DNA from: a virus
Strand: one strand, 5' to 3'
IMG/VR virus record: IMGVR_UViG_3300017646_000004
Length of the DNA: 43,554 bases
Part shown: positions 3,774 to 43,554 of the stretch, piece by piece
Layout: each line of letters starts with the position of its first letter
Position numbering within the stretch: position 1 is the first letter of the stretch
Translations under genes and position numbers: made by a program
The notes under the pieces: model-generated
The model's input: the letters and a program-made list of their open reading frames with translations, nothing else
What the model was told of the DNA's origin: nothing
Database searches by the model: none

Positions 3774-3973
3774 CACCCTCCATCCACACAACCTACCTGG
3801 CCATGACCCGAACAGGCCGTGTGGTCGCCATGTTCGATCATCCGCAGCGGGCACGGTCTTTCATCGACGACAGGCACGCGAAGGGCGTCCACCTGAACCT
3901 GGTGGAGGAACGCACGATCCGGAAGGTCTTGAGGTCTGCCGTTGTGTCCAAGCTTGAGAGGAAATCGGCATGA
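3770..3973 (+). CDS. Hypothetical protein
   Basis: Internal Met of track ORF 3722..3973. ATGA overlap with the upstream stop. Confidence 0.5.
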   Translation: MTPSIHTTYLAMTRTGRVVAMFDHPQRARSFIDDRHAKGVHLNLVEERTIRKVLRSAVVSKLERKSA

Positions 3974-4257
3974 CGGATGCTGAAATAGACGCGCTGGTGG
4001 AGAAATTGGAACGCTGGAGCTCGTTTGGATATGGCGTGGATGCCTCCACTGCCATGCGCGAAGCTGTCGCCCTCATCCACTCCCTGCGCGATCATCTGTG
4101 TTTAGCGGATGAACTGCTCATGGAGGCGAAGGGCGCATTCCCGTTGCTCGGCAATCCGCTGCGGCCTGCCTATCTGAAAATCCGCGCCATCACCGGCGAC
4201 GATTACTACGAGCGCAAATGCCGCGCCCGCTCCCTCATCGAACAGCGGGAGGGTTGA
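3970..4257 (+). CDS. Hypothetical protein
   Basis: Track ORF with an ATGA overlap upstream. Confidence 0.55.
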   Translation: MTDAEIDALVEKLERWSSFGYGVDASTAMREAVALIHSLRDHLCLADELLMEAKGAFPLLGNPLRPAYLKIRAITGDDYYERKCRARSLIEQREG

Positions 4258-5025: not shown

Positions 5026-5966
5026 AAGCCATGCTCGCCCAGCTCTCGCCTTATCACGGGACAGCCCGCCGCAGCGTTACCGACGTGCTCGACGCGGCCT
5101 TGCTCGATGCGAAGGGTCATTTGAAGGAAAAGACGCTGGATCGTTACACGCAATCGGCGCTGATCCTGAACCGTCACTTCACCGGATTCTTCGATGCGAT
5201 AGACCGGCGCGCGGTGCTCGACTTCATAGAGGCGCGCAAGGCGGACGGGGTTTCGATCCGCACGATCAAGAACGACCTTTCGGTGCTTTCTGTCGCGGCG
5301 GAATATGCGATTGAGCATGATCTTGCTGGCACAAATCCCGTCACACAAATCGGCAAGCGATCGCTGCGCTACAAGCCATCGGTTTTCGTCCTTCCGCCGG
5401 ACGCCGATATAGAGCTAGTGCTATCGAGCGTGGCCGGACCGCTGGAGCAGCTTTGCCGCCTCCTGAGGCATACCGGGATGCGCCGGGATGAGGCGGTGAA
5501 TCTGCGCTGGCAGGACGTGGATATGAAGCGCGGAGCCGCCACCCTGCCCATAACAAAAGCAGGCACATCAAGAACGGTCTCGTTGAGCGCGAAGGCCCTG
5601 GAAATCCTCAAGGGCCGCCCGCGCCAGATAGCAACCGATCTGATCTTCACCCGCAACGACGGACAGCCCTATACTGGCGTGTCGCAGGGCTGGCGGGAGG
5701 CAGTCTACAGGGCGCTCAAGAAGCGGCCAAAACTGCAACGATTCCGGCTTCACGATTTGCGGCACATCTACGCAATCGAATATCTGCGCGATGGCGGGAA
5801 CTTGTATGTCCTGCAAAAGCAGCTAGGGCACGGCAGCATCCGGCAGACGGAGTGGTATCTGCAATTTCTGACCCCGGATGAGCAGGAAAAAGTCAAATCG
5901 CAGTCGGCACAAAACCCGGCACAACTGCACCGGTTTACAGTTGCAGGCGGTGCAAAAAATGGCTAA
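4908..5966 (+). CDS. int: Tyrosine recombinase (phage integrase)
   Basis: GTG start. Contains RHTGMRRDEA (Arg I), HDLRHIYA (H-x-x-R) and LGHGSIRQTEWY (His/Tyr nucleophile region). Confidence 0.9.
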   Translation: MPDNLYERNGVFYARIQVAGRDVRRSLKTGSKAEAKRRLKAMLAQLSPYHGTARRSVTDVLDAALLDAKGHLKEKTLDRYTQSALILNRHFTGFFDAIDRRAVLDFIEARKADGVSIRTIKNDLSVLSVAAEYAIEHDLAGTNPVTQIGKRSLRYKPSVFVLPPDADIELVLSSVAGPLEQLCRLLRHTGMRRDEAVNLRWQDVDMKRGAATLPITKAGTSRTVSLSAKALEILKGRPRQIATDLIFTRNDGQPYTGVSQGWREAVYRALKKRPKLQRFRLHDLRHIYAIEYLRDGGNLYVLQKQLGHGSIRQTEWYLQFLTPDEQEKVKSQSAQNPAQLHRFTVAGGAKNG

Positions 5967-32209: not shown

Positions 32210-32758
32210 TCAAGCGGTCAACTGTTTCAGCACGTGGATAGCCAGATCGAGCCGGGTCTGATCCATCGGCTCTACGACCATGGCCTTGCTGCGCTGGGCG
32301 AAGCAGAGGCGATCGATCCAGTCGGGGCCGCAATCGGGATTGATGTCGATCACCAGTTGATAGAACGGCTTGCGGTAGCGTGCGCCCTGGCTACGGACGA
32401 AATCCAGCGTTTCATTCAGCCACTCCTCGCGGCGCTTTGCCTTCGCGCTGTCCATGCTGATCACGCTGCCCGAGGTCTTGTCCCCGATGGCACATGTGAT
32501 CCGCCCATGGGTGTAGGTGGCCCAATAGGCTGCGAAGATTGAGCGCGCCATGTCCAGCATCGCCTTGGCTTCGTTGCCCTCCCCCAGAAGCCCCGAACGG
32601 TATGCGCGGCCGATCGCATCGCATCCGTCCTGTCCGTAGAGCGTCTGCATCAGCTGGGCGTGATCGCTGCCCTTGACGCGCCGGCCGATACCGACACGCG
32701 AGAGGCGGCCGTTCTTCTCCCGCTTCCCCTGTTTTCTCTTTCTGCCTTTGGTGGACAT
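32210..32758 (-). CDS. Hypothetical protein (182 aa, basic N-terminus)
   Basis: Start MSTKGRKRKQGK shares one base with the helicase stop. Confidence 0.5.
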   Translation of the reverse strand: MSTKGRKRKQGKREKNGRLSRVGIGRRVKGSDHAQLMQTLYGQDGCDAIGRAYRSGLLGEGNEAKAMLDMARSIFAAYWATYTHGRITCAIGDKTSGSVISMDSAKAKRREEWLNETLDFVRSQGARYRKPFYQLVIDINPDCGPDWIDRLCFAQRSKAMVVEPMDQTRLDLAIHVLKQLTA

Positions 32759-35271
32759 CAGGCGACCTCTTGGAACGTGCTGGTGCGGTAATCGAACATC
32801 ACTTCCACCTCGTCGCGCCGGCCGGGGTATCCTTGCCTCACCTTGCACACGGTGATCTTGGCGCGGTTCTCCTTGAAGTTCGGGCGGTGATAGCTGAGGC
32901 CGTAGTCGGCCTTGTTGGCCCAGTTTGCTGAATTGCCGGAAACGGAAGCCTTGCCATTTCGCCTTGTGACATAAGCCCCGGTCGGAACGGTTAGGCACCA
33001 CACATCGCCCGAATATGGCACCTTGCTAAGCGAACGGTAGGTCCGGACAGCAGCTTCGCGCCGCCCTTCGCTCCCGAATGACAGCATCCAAGAGGGCGCG
33101 TGACGCTCGCTTTGCGATGCCCTTTCATGCCAGCAGCAACTAATTCCGAGCTCAATTGCCATCCGCTGCAACTGGTCGCGCAAGGTGGCGCTGGTCGTGG
33201 TCGCAGAATAGGTCCCATTCGTCCTTAGGTGGCCGTCTCCATCCAGATAAGCCGAGAGGAACGCCCGCTTGAGTTCAGGCGTCCCCGCCATAATCGGCTC
33301 AGGGATTCGCTTGTTCGCAGAGCCCTTTCCGCAATGCTCGCGAAGCCACGCCACCACTTCGCGAGCGCCGCGCACCCCGATGTAGTAGGAATTGCCAGGC
33401 AGCTTGCCGCCCTTTCCGCCGGGAGCGCTGCGCGTCACCGTGAACGGCACTTCCATCGCGGTCAAAAGCGCCTCGATCTTGTGCGCGCCATCGGTGTCTG
33501 CCGCCTGGGCGATGCTGACCCCGGAACTCTGCCAGCAACCTTCGGAAACGAACCAGCCCGCCAGCTTTGCCAGCAACGGACTAATTTCATCCGCGCCCGC
33601 GTCCTGCAAAGGCGCAGCAATCGGAATGGCGAATGGTGCCGAAGGCAGATCCTGCGCCTCGCAAAAGCTCCACTTGTCCTTTTCCCACCGGACAGGCCGA
33701 CCAATGCCAGTTTCAGCCTGCGTTCCGGTCGGATCAGCCCACTTCGGCTTTACGAGCATCCGGTGATCCGGCGTCACGCACTGGTCGAAACCGTATCCCT
33801 TGAAGCGGTAAAGGTCGCCTACAAAGGGCTTGCGGATTATCCGGCTCGGCTTCTGGTAGGTGAGGCCGCTAGTCTCGGGGTCGAAGCATCCGATTTCGTC
33901 ATCATAGGTTAGCGCGTCGTGACGCAGCCAGCCCCGCTTGGTGAGGACCTCGGTATCTTCCGAATGGCACCCGCTTATGTCGTAGAGCCCCGGCACACTC
34001 TTGCTGCCCTGCTGGGGCTTCGTCGGATGAGCGACCACCCAAAAGGCGACGTCATACTGCTTGGCGAAGCGCTTGATGGCTCGGATGGCGCGGCCGATGT
34101 AGTCGGTCTCGGTCTCGTCTCTCCGCCGCTTGTGTTCCAGCTCGTTCCATGGATCGAGAATGATCATCTTCGCACCGTGCCGTGTGACTGCAACGCGGCA
34201 CAGATCGAGGAAGGTATCGAGGTCCAGCTCGGTATCCTCGTCCACCGTCTGCGAGATCACGGTGAGCCGCTCCCGGATGCATTCATCAGCCGCCTTGCGC
34301 TTCGGGTGACTGGCCAGCTCGTGCTTCGCGCATTGCAAGATCGCCAAGCGAAGCCCGTCGTGCAGGATCGGCTTCACGTCCGTCTCGAAGCTCGCCACGC
34401 AAACCGGGAAATGATGGACCATGGTGTGCCCGATGATGGCGTTCATGAGCGTGGATTTGCCCATGTTGGCATAGCCGGTCAGCACCGTGAGCGTCCCCGG
34501 AACAACCCGGATCATTTCCTCGATTGGCGATACCCCGACCGAGTAGCTCCTGACTTCACCGCGCTCGGGGAAATCGTCGATGGTGTAGATGCCCTGCACC
34601 GGATAGGGCTTGGCCGTGCTGATGCACTCCGCCACGCGCTGAGGGCCGTATTCCTTGAGAACCTCGTTCAGGTCCTTGCACGGGAAGGGATACTCGACAA
34701 ACCGGCAGCGATCGGCTCCGAACAATGCCGCCATGTCGGCTCGGAGGTAGTGGCCCGCCGGATCATCGTCGGCCGCCAGAATGAACTCCCTGACCCCCTT
34801 CAAGGTCTCCAGATGGCGATCAACCCACTCGTAGCGCTTCGCCTGGTCAAGGTCGGCAGTCACGGCGGAGGGCGCGCCGTTCGGAACCGAGACGGTGTAG
34901 GGAAACCCCGACTGGATCGCCGCCAGCGCATCCCACTCCCCCTCCGTGATAACGACAGGCATCTGCCCGTTGCGAACCTTGGGGTCGCTCAGGCAATCCA
35001 CGTTCCACAGCGAGAGCGGAGCGCCGCTGTCCATGCGATGCTGCTTCTCGCTCGTGAGCCGATACTTGTGGTTGATGACCTCGCCAGCCTCCACGTAGGG
35101 AACCGCCAGCCAGTTGCCCTTGCTGTCCCGCACGGTCTCTAAGCCGAGCCGTTCTGCCAGCTCCGGATCCAGCCCCCTCGCCGTGAGCCAATCCCTGTGC
35201 CGTTCGTGAAGTGTCATTGTCCGATCCAGTCCATCCGCAATTGTGGCAGTAGGCCACCCATCCTCGCTCAT
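32758..35271 (-). CDS. T7 gp4-like primase-helicase (TOPRIM plus RecA-type helicase) interrupted by an intein
   Basis: TOPRIM motifs VVITEGEWDALAA and ILAADDDPAG. Walker A GYANMGKST and Walker B MIILDPWNE. Helicase motif YDISG/SANWANKAD is split by 346 aa. Confidence 0.85.
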   Translation of the reverse strand: MSEDGWPTATIADGLDRTMTLHERHRDWLTARGLDPELAERLGLETVRDSKGNWLAVPYVEAGEVINHKYRLTSEKQHRMDSGAPLSLWNVDCLSDPKVRNGQMPVVITEGEWDALAAIQSGFPYTVSVPNGAPSAVTADLDQAKRYEWVDRHLETLKGVREFILAADDDPAGHYLRADMAALFGADRCRFVEYPFPCKDLNEVLKEYGPQRVAECISTAKPYPVQGIYTIDDFPERGEVRSYSVGVSPIEEMIRVVPGTLTVLTGYANMGKSTLMNAIIGHTMVHHFPVCVASFETDVKPILHDGLRLAILQCAKHELASHPKRKAADECIRERLTVISQTVDEDTELDLDTFLDLCRVAVTRHGAKMIILDPWNELEHKRRRDETETDYIGRAIRAIKRFAKQYDVAFWVVAHPTKPQQGSKSVPGLYDISGCHSEDTEVLTKRGWLRHDALTYDDEIGCFDPETSGLTYQKPSRIIRKPFVGDLYRFKGYGFDQCVTPDHRMLVKPKWADPTGTQAETGIGRPVRWEKDKWSFCEAQDLPSAPFAIPIAAPLQDAGADEISPLLAKLAGWFVSEGCWQSSGVSIAQAADTDGAHKIEALLTAMEVPFTVTRSAPGGKGGKLPGNSYYIGVRGAREVVAWLREHCGKGSANKRIPEPIMAGTPELKRAFLSAYLDGDGHLRTNGTYSATTTSATLRDQLQRMAIELGISCCWHERASQSERHAPSWMLSFGSEGRREAAVRTYRSLSKVPYSGDVWCLTVPTGAYVTRRNGKASVSGNSANWANKADYGLSYHRPNFKENRAKITVCKVRQGYPGRRDEVEVMFDYRTSTFQEVA
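32932..33969 (-). mobile_element. Intein (346 aa) with a LAGLIDADG homing-endonuclease domain
   Basis: Starts CHSEDTEVLTKRGW (Cys1). Block B is VTPDHRMLV. LAGLIDADG motifs are LAGWFVSEG and LSAYLDGDGH. Ends VWCLTVPTGAYVTRRNGKASVSGN, followed by Ser+1. Confidence 0.85.
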
Positions 35272-35368
35272 CCCTCGTCACGCTGAGGCAGCGGTCCCGC
35301 TTGTTCTTCCGCCGGTGGCTGCATTCGGGACAGAGATGCTTGCCGGGCTTGTGGGGAAAGGTCAGCAT
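35231..35368 (-). CDS. Primase zinc-ribbon segment, in a different frame from the primase-helicase body
   Basis: MLTFPHKPGKHLCPECSHRRKNKRDRCLSVTRDERGWVAYCHNCGW (CxxC-24-CxxC). The ATG is coupled to the upstream stop. The frame is offset by one from ORF 32758..35271. Confidence 0.6.
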
Positions 35369-36063
35369 ATCGGCATCTCCCACGGCTCGTCTGAGCCCGA
35401 AGAGCGGATCGCCGCCTGGTGTTTCTTGTTGAGGCTGCCGGAAACGATGTGGAACCAGCCCTTGCGGGTCTTCTCGTCCTGCCCGTCGAGCCAGTCGTCC
35501 AGCGCGCCCAGCTCGGCCACGATGTCGCTGAGGCCGTGATACCGCTTGCGCCATCGATCGAGATCGGCCGCGTTCAGCTTCACCGTTCGGCCGAAAAACG
35601 CGTAATGAGTATTTCTTTCTTCTTTCCCTTCTTTACCTTCTTCTTCTTTGTCCCGCTGTTGTCCCGCTGTTGTCTCGGTTTCGGAAACATCGCTGTCCCG
35701 CTCGCCATCTTCCCTGTCCTGATATTTCGCATAATTACATATGGTTATGATGCTTTGGCCCTGTCCCGCTCTGTGTCCCGCTGTTGTCCCGATTTTTGAA
35801 CGTGTCTGAATCATGCCTTCTCGACGCAATTCTGCGATAAATCGGTCGGTTTTGCTCTTCGACCAACCCCATGCGTCGGCCAGGTAGCGCAGTGAAAATG
35901 TGAGTTCCCCGCGCTCCAATTCGATCAGATCGCCCTTGATCCGGACCCGCGATGGCTTCCAGCAGGCGTTCTCGATCAGCCATAGCCAGGCGTCTCTCCG
36001 CTCCGGAGAGTTCAAGGCGGGATTGTCCCTCCAGCCCCTGTGAAGCTTGATGAAGCCGGCCAT
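35362..36063 (-). CDS. Replication initiator / replisome-organiser-like protein
   Basis: N-terminal wHTH-like MAGFIKLHRGWRDNPALNSPERRDAWLWLIENA..., an acidic Lys/Glu linker and a C-terminal domain. Iterons lie inside the gene. Confidence 0.6.
   Translation of the reverse strand: MAGFIKLHRGWRDNPALNSPERRDAWLWLIENACWKPSRVRIKGDLIELERGELTFSLRYLADAWGWSKSKTDRFIAELRREGMIQTRSKIGTTAGHRAGQGQSIITICNYAKYQDREDGERDSDVSETETTAGQQRDKEEEGKEGKEERNTHYAFFGRTVKLNAADLDRWRKRYHGLSDIVAELGALDDWLDGQDEKTRKGWFHIVSGSLNKKHQAAIRSSGSDEPWEMPIC
35650..35792. repeat. Iteron cluster (GTCCCGCT), probable origin of replication
   Basis: Exact GTCCCGCT at 35650, 35661, 35695, 35763 and 35775, with degenerate copies at 35672 and 35786. 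An AT-rich core at 35721..35752 lies between the two clusters, and a CT tract at 35612..35649 is adjacent. Confidence 0.6.
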
Positions 36064-43101: not shown

Positions 43102-43554
43102 ATGGCCGAGACCGGCACCACGATTGAGCAGTTCCCCGTCCGCGACCGCTGGACCGGTGAAGTCAAGTTCACCGCTGAGATCGCCGTAACGCCCGACATG
43201 ACGCCAGCGATCAAGCTGGGGCTGGCAGTGAAGTGGGGGGTCAAGGCGCGTGCCAACCTCGCGGATGCCAACCTCGCGGATGCCAACCTCGCGGGTGCCA
43301 ACCTCGCGGATGCCAACCTCGCGGGTGCCAACCTCGCGGATGCCTACCTCGCGGGCGCCAACCTCGCGGATGCCAACCTCGCGGATGCCAACCTCGCGCG
43401 TGCCAACCTCGCGGATGCCTACCTCGCGGGCGCCAACCTCGCGGATGCCAACCTCGCGGATGCCAACCTCGCGGATGCCTACCTCGCGGGCGCCAACCTC
43501 GCGGATGCCAACCTCGCGGATGCCAACCTCGCGCGTGCCAACCTCGCGGATGCC
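43102..43554 (+). CDS. Pentapeptide-repeat protein, 5' part (continues at 1..519)
   Basis: [57 protein letters not shown], then A-N-L-A-[DGR] units in frame 1 to the window end. The track shows only a wrong-strand ORF here. Confidence 0.8.
43243..43554 (+). repeat. 15-bp tandem repeat array (about 21 units), 5' part of the pentapeptide minisatellite
   Basis: The same ctcgcgNNNgcc(a/t)ac unit as at 1..180, running to the last base of the window. Confidence 0.95.

Follow-up and report, generated by a model that had tools for sequence, protein, structure and literature searches.

The 43,554-nucleotide viral sequence IMGVR_UViG_3300017646_000004 from IMG/VR, analysed over its whole length and referred to below as the window, is a phage or prophage genome with genes for portal, large terminase and head-closure proteins. 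Its T7 gp4-like primase-helicase gene carries an insert that we identify as an intein. As the longest open reading frame (ORF), the precursor gene occupies 32758..35271 on the minus strand and consists of 837 codons and a stop codon; all features of this gene and its insert named below lie on the same strand unless a strand is given. The insert comprises 346 residues (ORF residues 435-780, 32932..33969) and is placed in frame between YDISG and SANWANKAD, the two halves of helicase motif H4.

The window had previously been examined from its sequence alone. That original prediction described the 837-codon ORF as a protein with gp4-like TOPRIM and helicase motifs, and Pfam matches as well as alignments to gp4 structures bear this description out. 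The complete ORF matched Toprim_2, AAA_25 and DnaB_C, with the DnaB_C match ending at residue 410. The N-extein (33970..35217), to which these Pfam models and the gp4 structures 5ikn and 6n7i were assigned, contains the TOPRIM primase, including ITEGEWD (34930..34950) and LAADDDPAG (34753..34779), followed by the RecA/DnaB-type helicase with the Walker A sequence GYANMGKST (34450..34476), and it ends with the first half of H4 (YDISG, 33970..33984). The C-extein of 57 residues (32761..32931) continues H4 with its second half (SANWANKAD) and provides the strands at the C-terminal end of the RecA fold. When joined, the exteins (491 residues) aligned lengthwise to gp4 structures 5ikn, 6n7i and 1q57 (4e-9), and gp4 structures matched the primase-helicase family profile at 1e-12. 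The protein is of the bifunctional T7 gp4/Twinkle type, with a TOPRIM domain fused to a DnaB/RecA-type helicase that has both Walker A and H4. The N-terminal Cys4 zinc-binding domain of T7 gp4 is absent from the primase ORF, residue 28 of which aligns to gp4 residue 80.

Translation probably starts at codon 19, an ATG at 35215..35217 that opens the sequence MTLHERH. The database gene call for this protein (P0001) has 819 residues, and nearly all homologs begin at the equivalent of codon 19. The extein residue numbers first given are therefore probably 18 too high, whereas the junction nucleotides stand and the nucleotide coordinates of the insert are unaffected by the revised start. Computed masses are 91.4 kDa for the 819-residue precursor, 53.5 kDa for the spliced product of 473 residues and 37.9 kDa for the intein.

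A database search with the primase-helicase identified 1,335 homologs, some of them named "bifunctional DNA primase/helicase" or "twinkle protein". The insert is missing from about 117 of the 120 best homologs listed (470-496 residues, 69-78% identical), and some of the intein-less homologs are encoded by prophages within Croceicoccus and Novosphingobium genomes. Alignment with seven intein-less homologs (73-77% identical) produced a gap of exactly the 346 residues, with essentially invariant flanks, DISG/SANWANK(A/P)D (the slash marks the junction here and below). The nine aligned homologs run uninterrupted through the junction (DISGSANWANKAD; PGLYDISGSANWANKADYGLTY), the intein-less coding site at a related locus (L003) reads CTGTACGATATTTCAGGA/TCGGCCAACTGGGCGAACAAG, and the predicted ligated peptide of the window protein is LYDISGSANWANK. 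Removing the insert extended the DnaB_C profile span from 17-172 to 17-254 of 255 positions and raised the score from 32.8 to 47.1 bits. When 18 intein-less homologs were combined into a profile, it aligned through H4 of T7 gp4 ('lydisgsanwankad' against 'ITDLRGSGALRQLSD'), which places the insertion in H4, a DNA-binding loop next to the arginine-finger region. The original prediction thus located the insert correctly: ORF translation and motif location give identical coordinates, YDISG continues into SANWANKAD once the 346 residues are removed, and the joined exteins align continuously across the junction to DnaB_C, to the ~470-residue orthologs and to T7 gp4 H4. The insertion is far beyond chance.

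Motifs and fold of the insert

The insert begins with CHSEDTEVLTKRGW and ends with KASVSGN, and every motif that had first suggested an intein, namely this Cys start, TPDH, LAGWFVSEG, LSAYLDGDGH and the VSGN end before Ser+1, is present in the translation. A HINT splicing domain is split by a LAGLIDADG homing-endonuclease domain. Block A (CHSEDTEVLTKRG, 33931..33969) starts with Cys1 (33967..33969), the predicted first nucleophile, and block B (GFDQCVTPDHRMLV, 33751..33792) contains a Thr-x-x-His formed by Thr66 (position B:7) and His69 (B:10), followed by Arg70 (B:11) and Met71 (B:12). The first LAGLIDADG motif (LAKLAGWFVSEG, 33538..33573) has Glu143 at the catalytic position, aligns with LAKLLGYYVSEG of PI-PkoII and is helical in the structural model described below; the second, FLSAYLDGDG (33232..33261), has Asp245 at the catalytic position and aligns with FLEGYFIGDG of PI-PkoII. 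The block F region (GDVWCLTVPTGAYVTRR, 32959..33009) includes the near-invariant Arg-Arg of an RRNGK motif and lacks the usual His at F:13. It also contains Cys325 at F:4 (32995..32997), where class 1 inteins usually have Asp; this residue had gone unmentioned in the original prediction. Block G together with the first C-extein residue (NGKASVSGN and Ser+1, 32929..32958) provides Ser344 (G:5), Gly345 (G:6, the penultimate position), Asn346 (G:7) and Ser+1 (32929..32931). The penultimate His at G:6, which is common and not obligatory, is absent, its place being taken by Gly345.

Comparison of the insert with curated domain models, which had been proposed as a check, was only half successful: the Pfam model LAGLIDADG_3 matched residues 232-290 with 41.9 bits (cut-off 22.5), and no Hint or Intein_splicing model matched the window copy. 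NCBIfam yielded sub-threshold matches only, to the endonuclease region of intein-containing enzyme models. As Pfam and NCBIfam gave only the endonuclease domain, we drew the identity of the intein from matches to PDB sequences, a family profile and the predicted fold. The N-terminal 70 residues matched the AceL NrdHF intein (6ZGQ) at 2e-8, and the middle of the insert matched PI-PkoII at 1.6e-5 with both LAGLIDADG motifs aligned. A family profile built from 60 relatives of the insert matched PI-PkoII (9e-22), VMA inteins (1e-17) and AceL NrdHF (2e-13), and also the PI-SceI, PI-PfuI, KlbA, RecA, NrdJ-1 and DnaX inteins.

An AlphaFold2 model of the intein, built on the alignment of its relatives, had a pLDDT of 94 and a pTM of 0.92 and adopted the HINT fold. 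Its best fold match in the PDB by Foldseek was TliVMA (5e-17), followed by PI-SceI, PI-PfuI and PI-PkoII (E from 5e-17 to 1e-11), and the Foldseek probability was 1.00 for the VMA, PI-SceI, PI-PfuI, PI-PkoII and AceL NrdHF inteins. Among endonuclease-free structures AceL NrdHF was the best match (target TM-score 0.78-0.79), and the Ssp DnaB mini-intein reached 0.51. Both LAGLIDADG helices end in an acidic residue, and fold matches to I-DmoI and PI-SceI, along with the profile match, back a two-motif LAGLIDADG monomer. Given these matches, the nucleophile and block B residues at one end and Asn346/Ser+1 at the other, we conclude that this is an intein of full size, complete with a homing endonuclease.

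Three other candidates were rejected. An intron does not apply, as the ORF is continuous and the boundaries lie at the protein level; a bacterial intein-like domain was discarded because the +1 nucleophile and the C-terminal Asn are present. Two ORFs run antisense to the intein (33229..33912 and 33392..33766, plus strand); off-frame ORFs of this kind are ordinary in a genome with 60% GC.

The intein family and its genomic setting

A search with the insert alone identified 106 relatives, of which 97 aligned at both ends. Their hosts include ThyX, GTP cyclohydrolase I, DnaB-like helicases and methyltransferases. Despite these different hosts the alignments span residue 1 to residue 346, and since they start and stop at the intein ends in unrelated proteins the element appears to be mobile and self-contained. 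Cys at residue 1, Gly at G:6 and Asn at G:7 were found in 97/97 relatives, Thr at B:7 and His at B:10 each in 95/97, the RRNGK motif in ~95/97 and Arg at B:11 in 83/97. Position F:4 is Cys in 93 of the 97, Asp in 2 and Gly in 2; B:12 is Met in 56, Val in 15 and Phe in 10; G:5 is Cys in 40, Ser in 36 and Thr in 10; and the +1 residue is Ser in 49, Cys in 40 and Thr in 8.

When 1.84 billion representatives of 50%-identity clusters were scanned exhaustively with phmmer, there were 10,209 matches at E<=1e-3, 3,837 at <=1e-10 and 201 at <=1e-30, the weaker tiers including matches to the endonuclease domain only. The best 150 matches contained 119 full-length sequences, many of them at the same helicase site, YDISG/SA(H/N)W; all 119 start with Cys and 118 end with Gly-Asn. 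When both sets of relatives (97 + 119) are combined, Cys1 is present in 216/216 and the Gly-Asn end in 215/216, and the +1 residue is always Ser, Cys or Thr. The penultimate Gly is fixed in this intein lineage. The original prediction had treated it as an atypical junction of this copy, a view that has to be abandoned given the Gly-Asn end in 97/97 and 118/119 relatives and in the splicing-proficient AceL NrdHF intein. The scan also identified single giant proteins of 1,200-3,700 residues (P0236, P0247, P0254, P0292, P0294 and others) with up to 10 stretches matching the intein; these multi-intein hosts presumably come from large phages or giant viruses.

Within the helicases the distribution of the intein is sporadic. 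The exteins closest to those of the window (74-78% identical) are without an intein, and in the nearest intein-bearing genes (P0002 and P0003) the exteins are 57-64% and the inteins 64-66% identical. Distant helicases with exteins of 33-40% identity have an intein at the same site that is 37-52% identical. Such a distribution agrees with horizontal transfer, the intein homing into a conserved target, and repeated intein loss may be an alternative explanation. The LAGLIDADG endonuclease, in which Glu143 and Asp245 are kept, would cut intein-less alleles at the DISG/SANW coding site and so mediate homing among related phages.

One of the related intein-bearing loci is disrupted. At ~5420-6000 of L001 (GCA_008636205.1, VTLG01004051.1) the TOPRIM and helicase parts lie in different frames and ~30 conserved residues (YPFPCKDLNEVL) are missing, which is why P0003 consists of only the helicase-plus-intein part (607 residues). 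This disruption is either real or an assembly error.

In the window, the primase-helicase gene is immediately preceded by a gene for a DnaD-like helicase loader, and in related loci the same replication module is found beside S24-peptidase repressors and terminase genes. Between the two genes is a conserved CxxC...CxxC zinc-ribbon coding segment (MLTFPHKPGKHLCPECSHRRKNKRDRCLSVTRDERGWVAYCHNCGWTGS, 35222..35368, minus strand) within an ORF at 34847..35554 (minus strand). The segment begins on the stop codon of the loader gene and ends ~5 codons before the primase ATG. The first 18 codons of the primase ORF overlap its reading frame, and a +1 shift is needed to pass from that frame into the primase. 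The arrangement and the direction of the shift were the same in 4/4 loci examined, one of them intein-less; in the related loci the segment is at ~5255-5400 (L001), ~1250-1440 (L002) and ~3847-3990 (L003). The zinc ribbon could be a separate small protein or be attached by frameshift fusion. No slippery motif is evident at the boundary between zinc ribbon and primase, and Pfam zinc-ribbon models gave no significant match to the segment.

Downstream, a 263-codon ORF (32210..33001, minus strand) without a PHROG match overlaps the last 244 nt of the primase-helicase gene in another frame, including part of the region that encodes the C-terminus of the intein. At the homologous L003 locus the downstream gene encodes 68 residues and the overlap is 17 nt, suggesting that the real start of the ORF in the window is probably an internal codon.

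The two ends of the contig (1..179 and 43251..43554) consist of the same 15-bp tandem array (CTCGCGGATGCCAAC), in ~12 and ~20 copies, and the first and last 27 bases of the window are identical. The array reads as Leu-Ala-Asp-Ala-Asn and resembles a pentapeptide-repeat protein gene. The genome is probably circular or circularly permuted, with the assembly interrupted inside the repeat, which leaves the number of copies uncertain.

Splicing chemistry and alternative readings

The most likely explanation for these results is that a genuine full-length intein, probably active, resides in H4 of the gp4-like primase-helicase, with class 1 chemistry as the favoured route; we hold this with fairly good confidence. 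We infer that the gene would be translated as a ~91 kDa precursor, from which the HINT domain would excise the 38-kDa intein and ligate YDISG to SANWANKAD, yielding a working primase-helicase of ~53.5 kDa. Splicing would begin with an N-S acyl shift at Cys1, activated by Thr66 and His69 of block B. In the third step, cyclisation of Asn346 would free the intein, with Arg70 (B:11) and possibly the Arg-Arg of RRNGK standing in for both histidines at the scissile carbonyl, and in the fourth an O-N shift would restore the peptide bond. Cys325, at the usual place of Asp in class 1 inteins, may tune or coordinate the two junctions.

The sole characterised relative bears on this scheme in several ways. 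AceL NrdHF occurs naturally as a split intein, encoded on a phage-like contig of Antarctic origin (Hoffmann et al. 2020; PMC7891396), and was described as poorly conserved compared to other inteins and as having an M-C-T triplet instead of W-C-T. It is without both assisting histidines, F:13 and G:6, and splices efficiently and fast with HRM and GN/S features; its Arg69 (B:11) contacts the C-scissile carbonyl, R69A slows splicing, and G145H abolishes activity (PMC7891396). As Arg70 is in place in the window intein like Arg69 in AceL NrdHF, the window intein could work without a penultimate His. Its Gly-Asn end is likewise compatible with splicing, because AceL NrdHF has the same features and splices. 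Class 1 is favoured by the invariance of Cys1 (216/216), a position that true class 3 inteins leave unconstrained, and by the four of 97 relatives with Asp or Gly at F:4, which still keep Cys1. Cys at F:4 has precedent in class 1, where inteins with this residue form an accepted category that is polyphyletic (PMC3196547; PMC4031507).

Several points weigh against an active class 1 intein. Neither of the histidines that usually help Asn to cyclise, F:13 and G:6, is present. Pfam models PF14890, PF07591 and PF01079 did not match the window sequence at E up to 1; a few family members carry a precomputed PF14890. AceL NrdHF was shown by experiment to follow a class 3 route through Cys124 (F:4) (PMC7891396), that is, it uses the block F Cys and not residue 1 as nucleophile, so the class 1 assignment draws on conservation. 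Splicing and endonuclease action of the Cys1 family members are likewise read from their genes. Finally, the GC content at third codon positions (GC3) of the intein, 0.70 (0.59 in the last 46 codons) compared to 0.82 and 0.86 in the exteins, is weak evidence on recent acquisition because it falls within the range of other window genes (0.66-0.79); overall GC is flat across the gene.

It is conceivable, at appreciably lower probability, that the same intein uses a class 3 route or a two-thiol relay. Cys325 would then attack the N-terminal junction or take the thioester from Cys1, giving a block F branched intermediate before transfer to Ser+1. Conservation of Cys at F:4 in 93/97 relatives, even at 22-30% overall identity, is consistent with such a role, as is the finding that AceL NrdHF, the closest characterised intein by sequence and fold, shares HRM, CL(S/T)VP and (S/T)GN/S and needs Cys124 while having Met rather than Trp at B:12 (PMC7891396). 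Moreover, Ser+1 is typical of class 3, and some inteins with the WCT triplet begin with Ser or Cys (PMC2807308). However, 216/216 Cys1 is unexpected if residue 1 is dispensable as in class 3, and retention of Cys1 by the four relatives with Asp or Gly at F:4 argues in the same direction. The operational definition of class 3 combines the lack of Cys at position 1 with Cys at F:4 (PMC7891396), and the window intein falls outside it, as it does outside the rule of no Cys, Ser or Thr at position 1, since Cys1 is present. Instead of the WCT triplet (Trp B:12, Cys F:4, Thr G:5) it has Met71, Cys325 and Ser344 (M-C-S), in which only the Cys fits; G:5 is Ser here, and Cys, Ser or Thr in the family, not the Thr of class 3.

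On a wider scale, the family picture hints at a second independent class 3 origin or a two-thiol mechanism, as read from its sequences. The intein is part of a clade that is very large and seems to lack a name, its signature being Cys1, T-P-x-H-R-M, Cys(F:4)-L-T-V-P, R-R-N-G-K and Gly-Asn/Ser, Cys or Thr. We tentatively suggest, as a possibility with the odds clearly against it, that AceL NrdHF, the one known split class 3 intein, is a derived Ala1 member or close relative of this clade. Class 3 would then have originated a second time, from class 1 ancestors with a block F Cys and independently of the WCT class 3 inteins, which are reportedly monophyletic, and Cys1 members may use a two-thiol relay, from Cys1 through Cys F:4 to +1, or either entry point.

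Far less probable is a decayed, non-splicing intein, which would leave the helicase dead or reliant on a co-infecting phage or the host. The missing histidines, the lack of a Pfam Hint match, the precedent of the inactive phage-derived intein Arsp-FB24 Arth_1007 (PMC3196547) and the disrupted primase part in L001 are what such decay might look like. However, the reading frame is intact over 837 codons, all family-invariant residues are kept (C1, T66, H69, R70, C325, RRNGK, G345, N346 and S+1), and so are the endonuclease catalytic residues. None of the 216 relatives has these histidines, nor does a relative proven to splice fast, and no second helicase was identified among the ten long window ORFs scanned against PHROGs.

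Retention of the insert as a permanent domain, or fusion of a free-standing LAGLIDADG gene, has in its favour that only the endonuclease part yields a curated Pfam match, but is effectively refuted: the flanking lobes are predicted to fold as a HINT domain matching solved inteins, Cys1 and Asn/Ser lie exactly at the ortholog gap, relatives in ThyX, GTP cyclohydrolase I and methyltransferases align from residue 1 to 346, and the insert splits a RecA-core motif involved in DNA binding and catalysis.

Returning to the favoured reading of a probably active class 1 intein, the gene should be annotated as an intein-containing primase-helicase with a mature protein of 473 residues, the insert not being part of it. 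One more homing intein in an essential phage replication motif is an expected, known kind of selfish element. More is gained at the level of the family: three features, namely a Gly-Asn end, Arg at B:11 and Cys at F:4, are fixed across an intein clade that is widespread in metagenomes, and the one relative of the clade to have been characterised is a fast splicer that follows the class 3 route. With the window copy standing for its full-length Cys1 members, the clade is a test bed for His-free splicing and for evolution from class 1 to class 3, and its members may serve as fast-splicing tools.

Comparison with known inteins

Phage helicases, primases, terminases and thymidylate synthases are well-known hosts of inteins (PMC5050341; bioRxiv 10.1101/2025.01.02.630785). 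A literature search aimed at an intein in a phage primase-helicase found none, and one with the Ssp DnaB extein sequence gave no match.

The two-domain architecture of PI-SceI, PI-PfuI, PI-PkoII and TliVMA is also that of the window intein, and these inteins are its best fold matches (query TM-score ~0.6). They differ in that they are only 10-14% identical, their hosts are archaea or yeast, their ends are His-Asn and their block F is of the Asp type. Canonical class 3 inteins (MP-Be DnaB, Msm DnaBi1 and Mch DnaB1, with the WCT triplet; PMC2807308) resemble the window intein in Cys at F:4, Ser or Thr at +1, the association with phages and helicases and the frequent presence of LAGLIDADG domains. 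None of their solved structures was among the profile matches (E up to 0.01) or the top 50 fold matches.

Inteins of cellular DnaB are known from the corresponding motif, and we take the Ssp and Rma DnaB inteins to occupy the equivalent site, ESG/SIEQDAD. H4 of DnaB is insertion site a, which harbours endonuclease-containing class 1 inteins with Ser+1 such as Msm DnaBi2 and Mtu DnaB (PMC6195587). Compared at the motif level, these site-a inteins and the window intein are alike in being of the endonuclease-containing class 1 type, in Cys1 and Ser+1, and in their position in the H4 loop of a DnaB-family hexameric helicase. However, the host of the window intein is a phage TOPRIM-helicase fusion of the gp4/Twinkle type rather than a cellular DnaB, and the site-a inteins have a His-Asn end and Asp at F:4 where the window intein has Gly-Asn and Cys. 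They were also absent from its sequence matches, and the fold TM-score of the Ssp DnaB mini-intein was only 0.51.

AceL NrdHF is the closest solved mini-intein both by sequence (2e-8 to 1e-9) and by fold (TM-score 0.78-0.79). When a mini-intein construct was compared with the PDB by phmmer, the alignment to 6ZGQ was confined to the N-lobe, and the C-lobe was aligned by MAFFT using the full AceL NrdHF sequence from the supplement of PMC7891396, a text with OCR (optical character recognition) noise. In block B, GFDQKVSPNHRM of AceL NrdHF aligns with GFDQCVTPDHRM of the window intein, and in blocks F and G FHCLSVPGKSF...HGNRSVTGN/S aligns with VWCLTVPTGAY...NGKASVSGN/S. The two inteins have in common GFDQxV(S/T)PxHRM in block B, with Arg at B:11 and Met at B:12, CL(S/T)VP with Cys at F:4 in block F, the lack of His at F:13 and G:6, and the end SV(S/T)GN/S, and both appear to come from phage-like contigs. 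They differ at residue 1, which is Ala in AceL NrdHF and Cys in the window intein, and at G:5 (Thr compared to Ser), and AceL NrdHF has DEHGN where the window family has the invariant RRNGK. Moreover, AceL NrdHF is split, with a separate GIY-YIG endonuclease gene, and is hosted by NrdHF, whereas the window intein is contiguous, carries an in-frame LAGLIDADG endonuclease and resides in a helicase.

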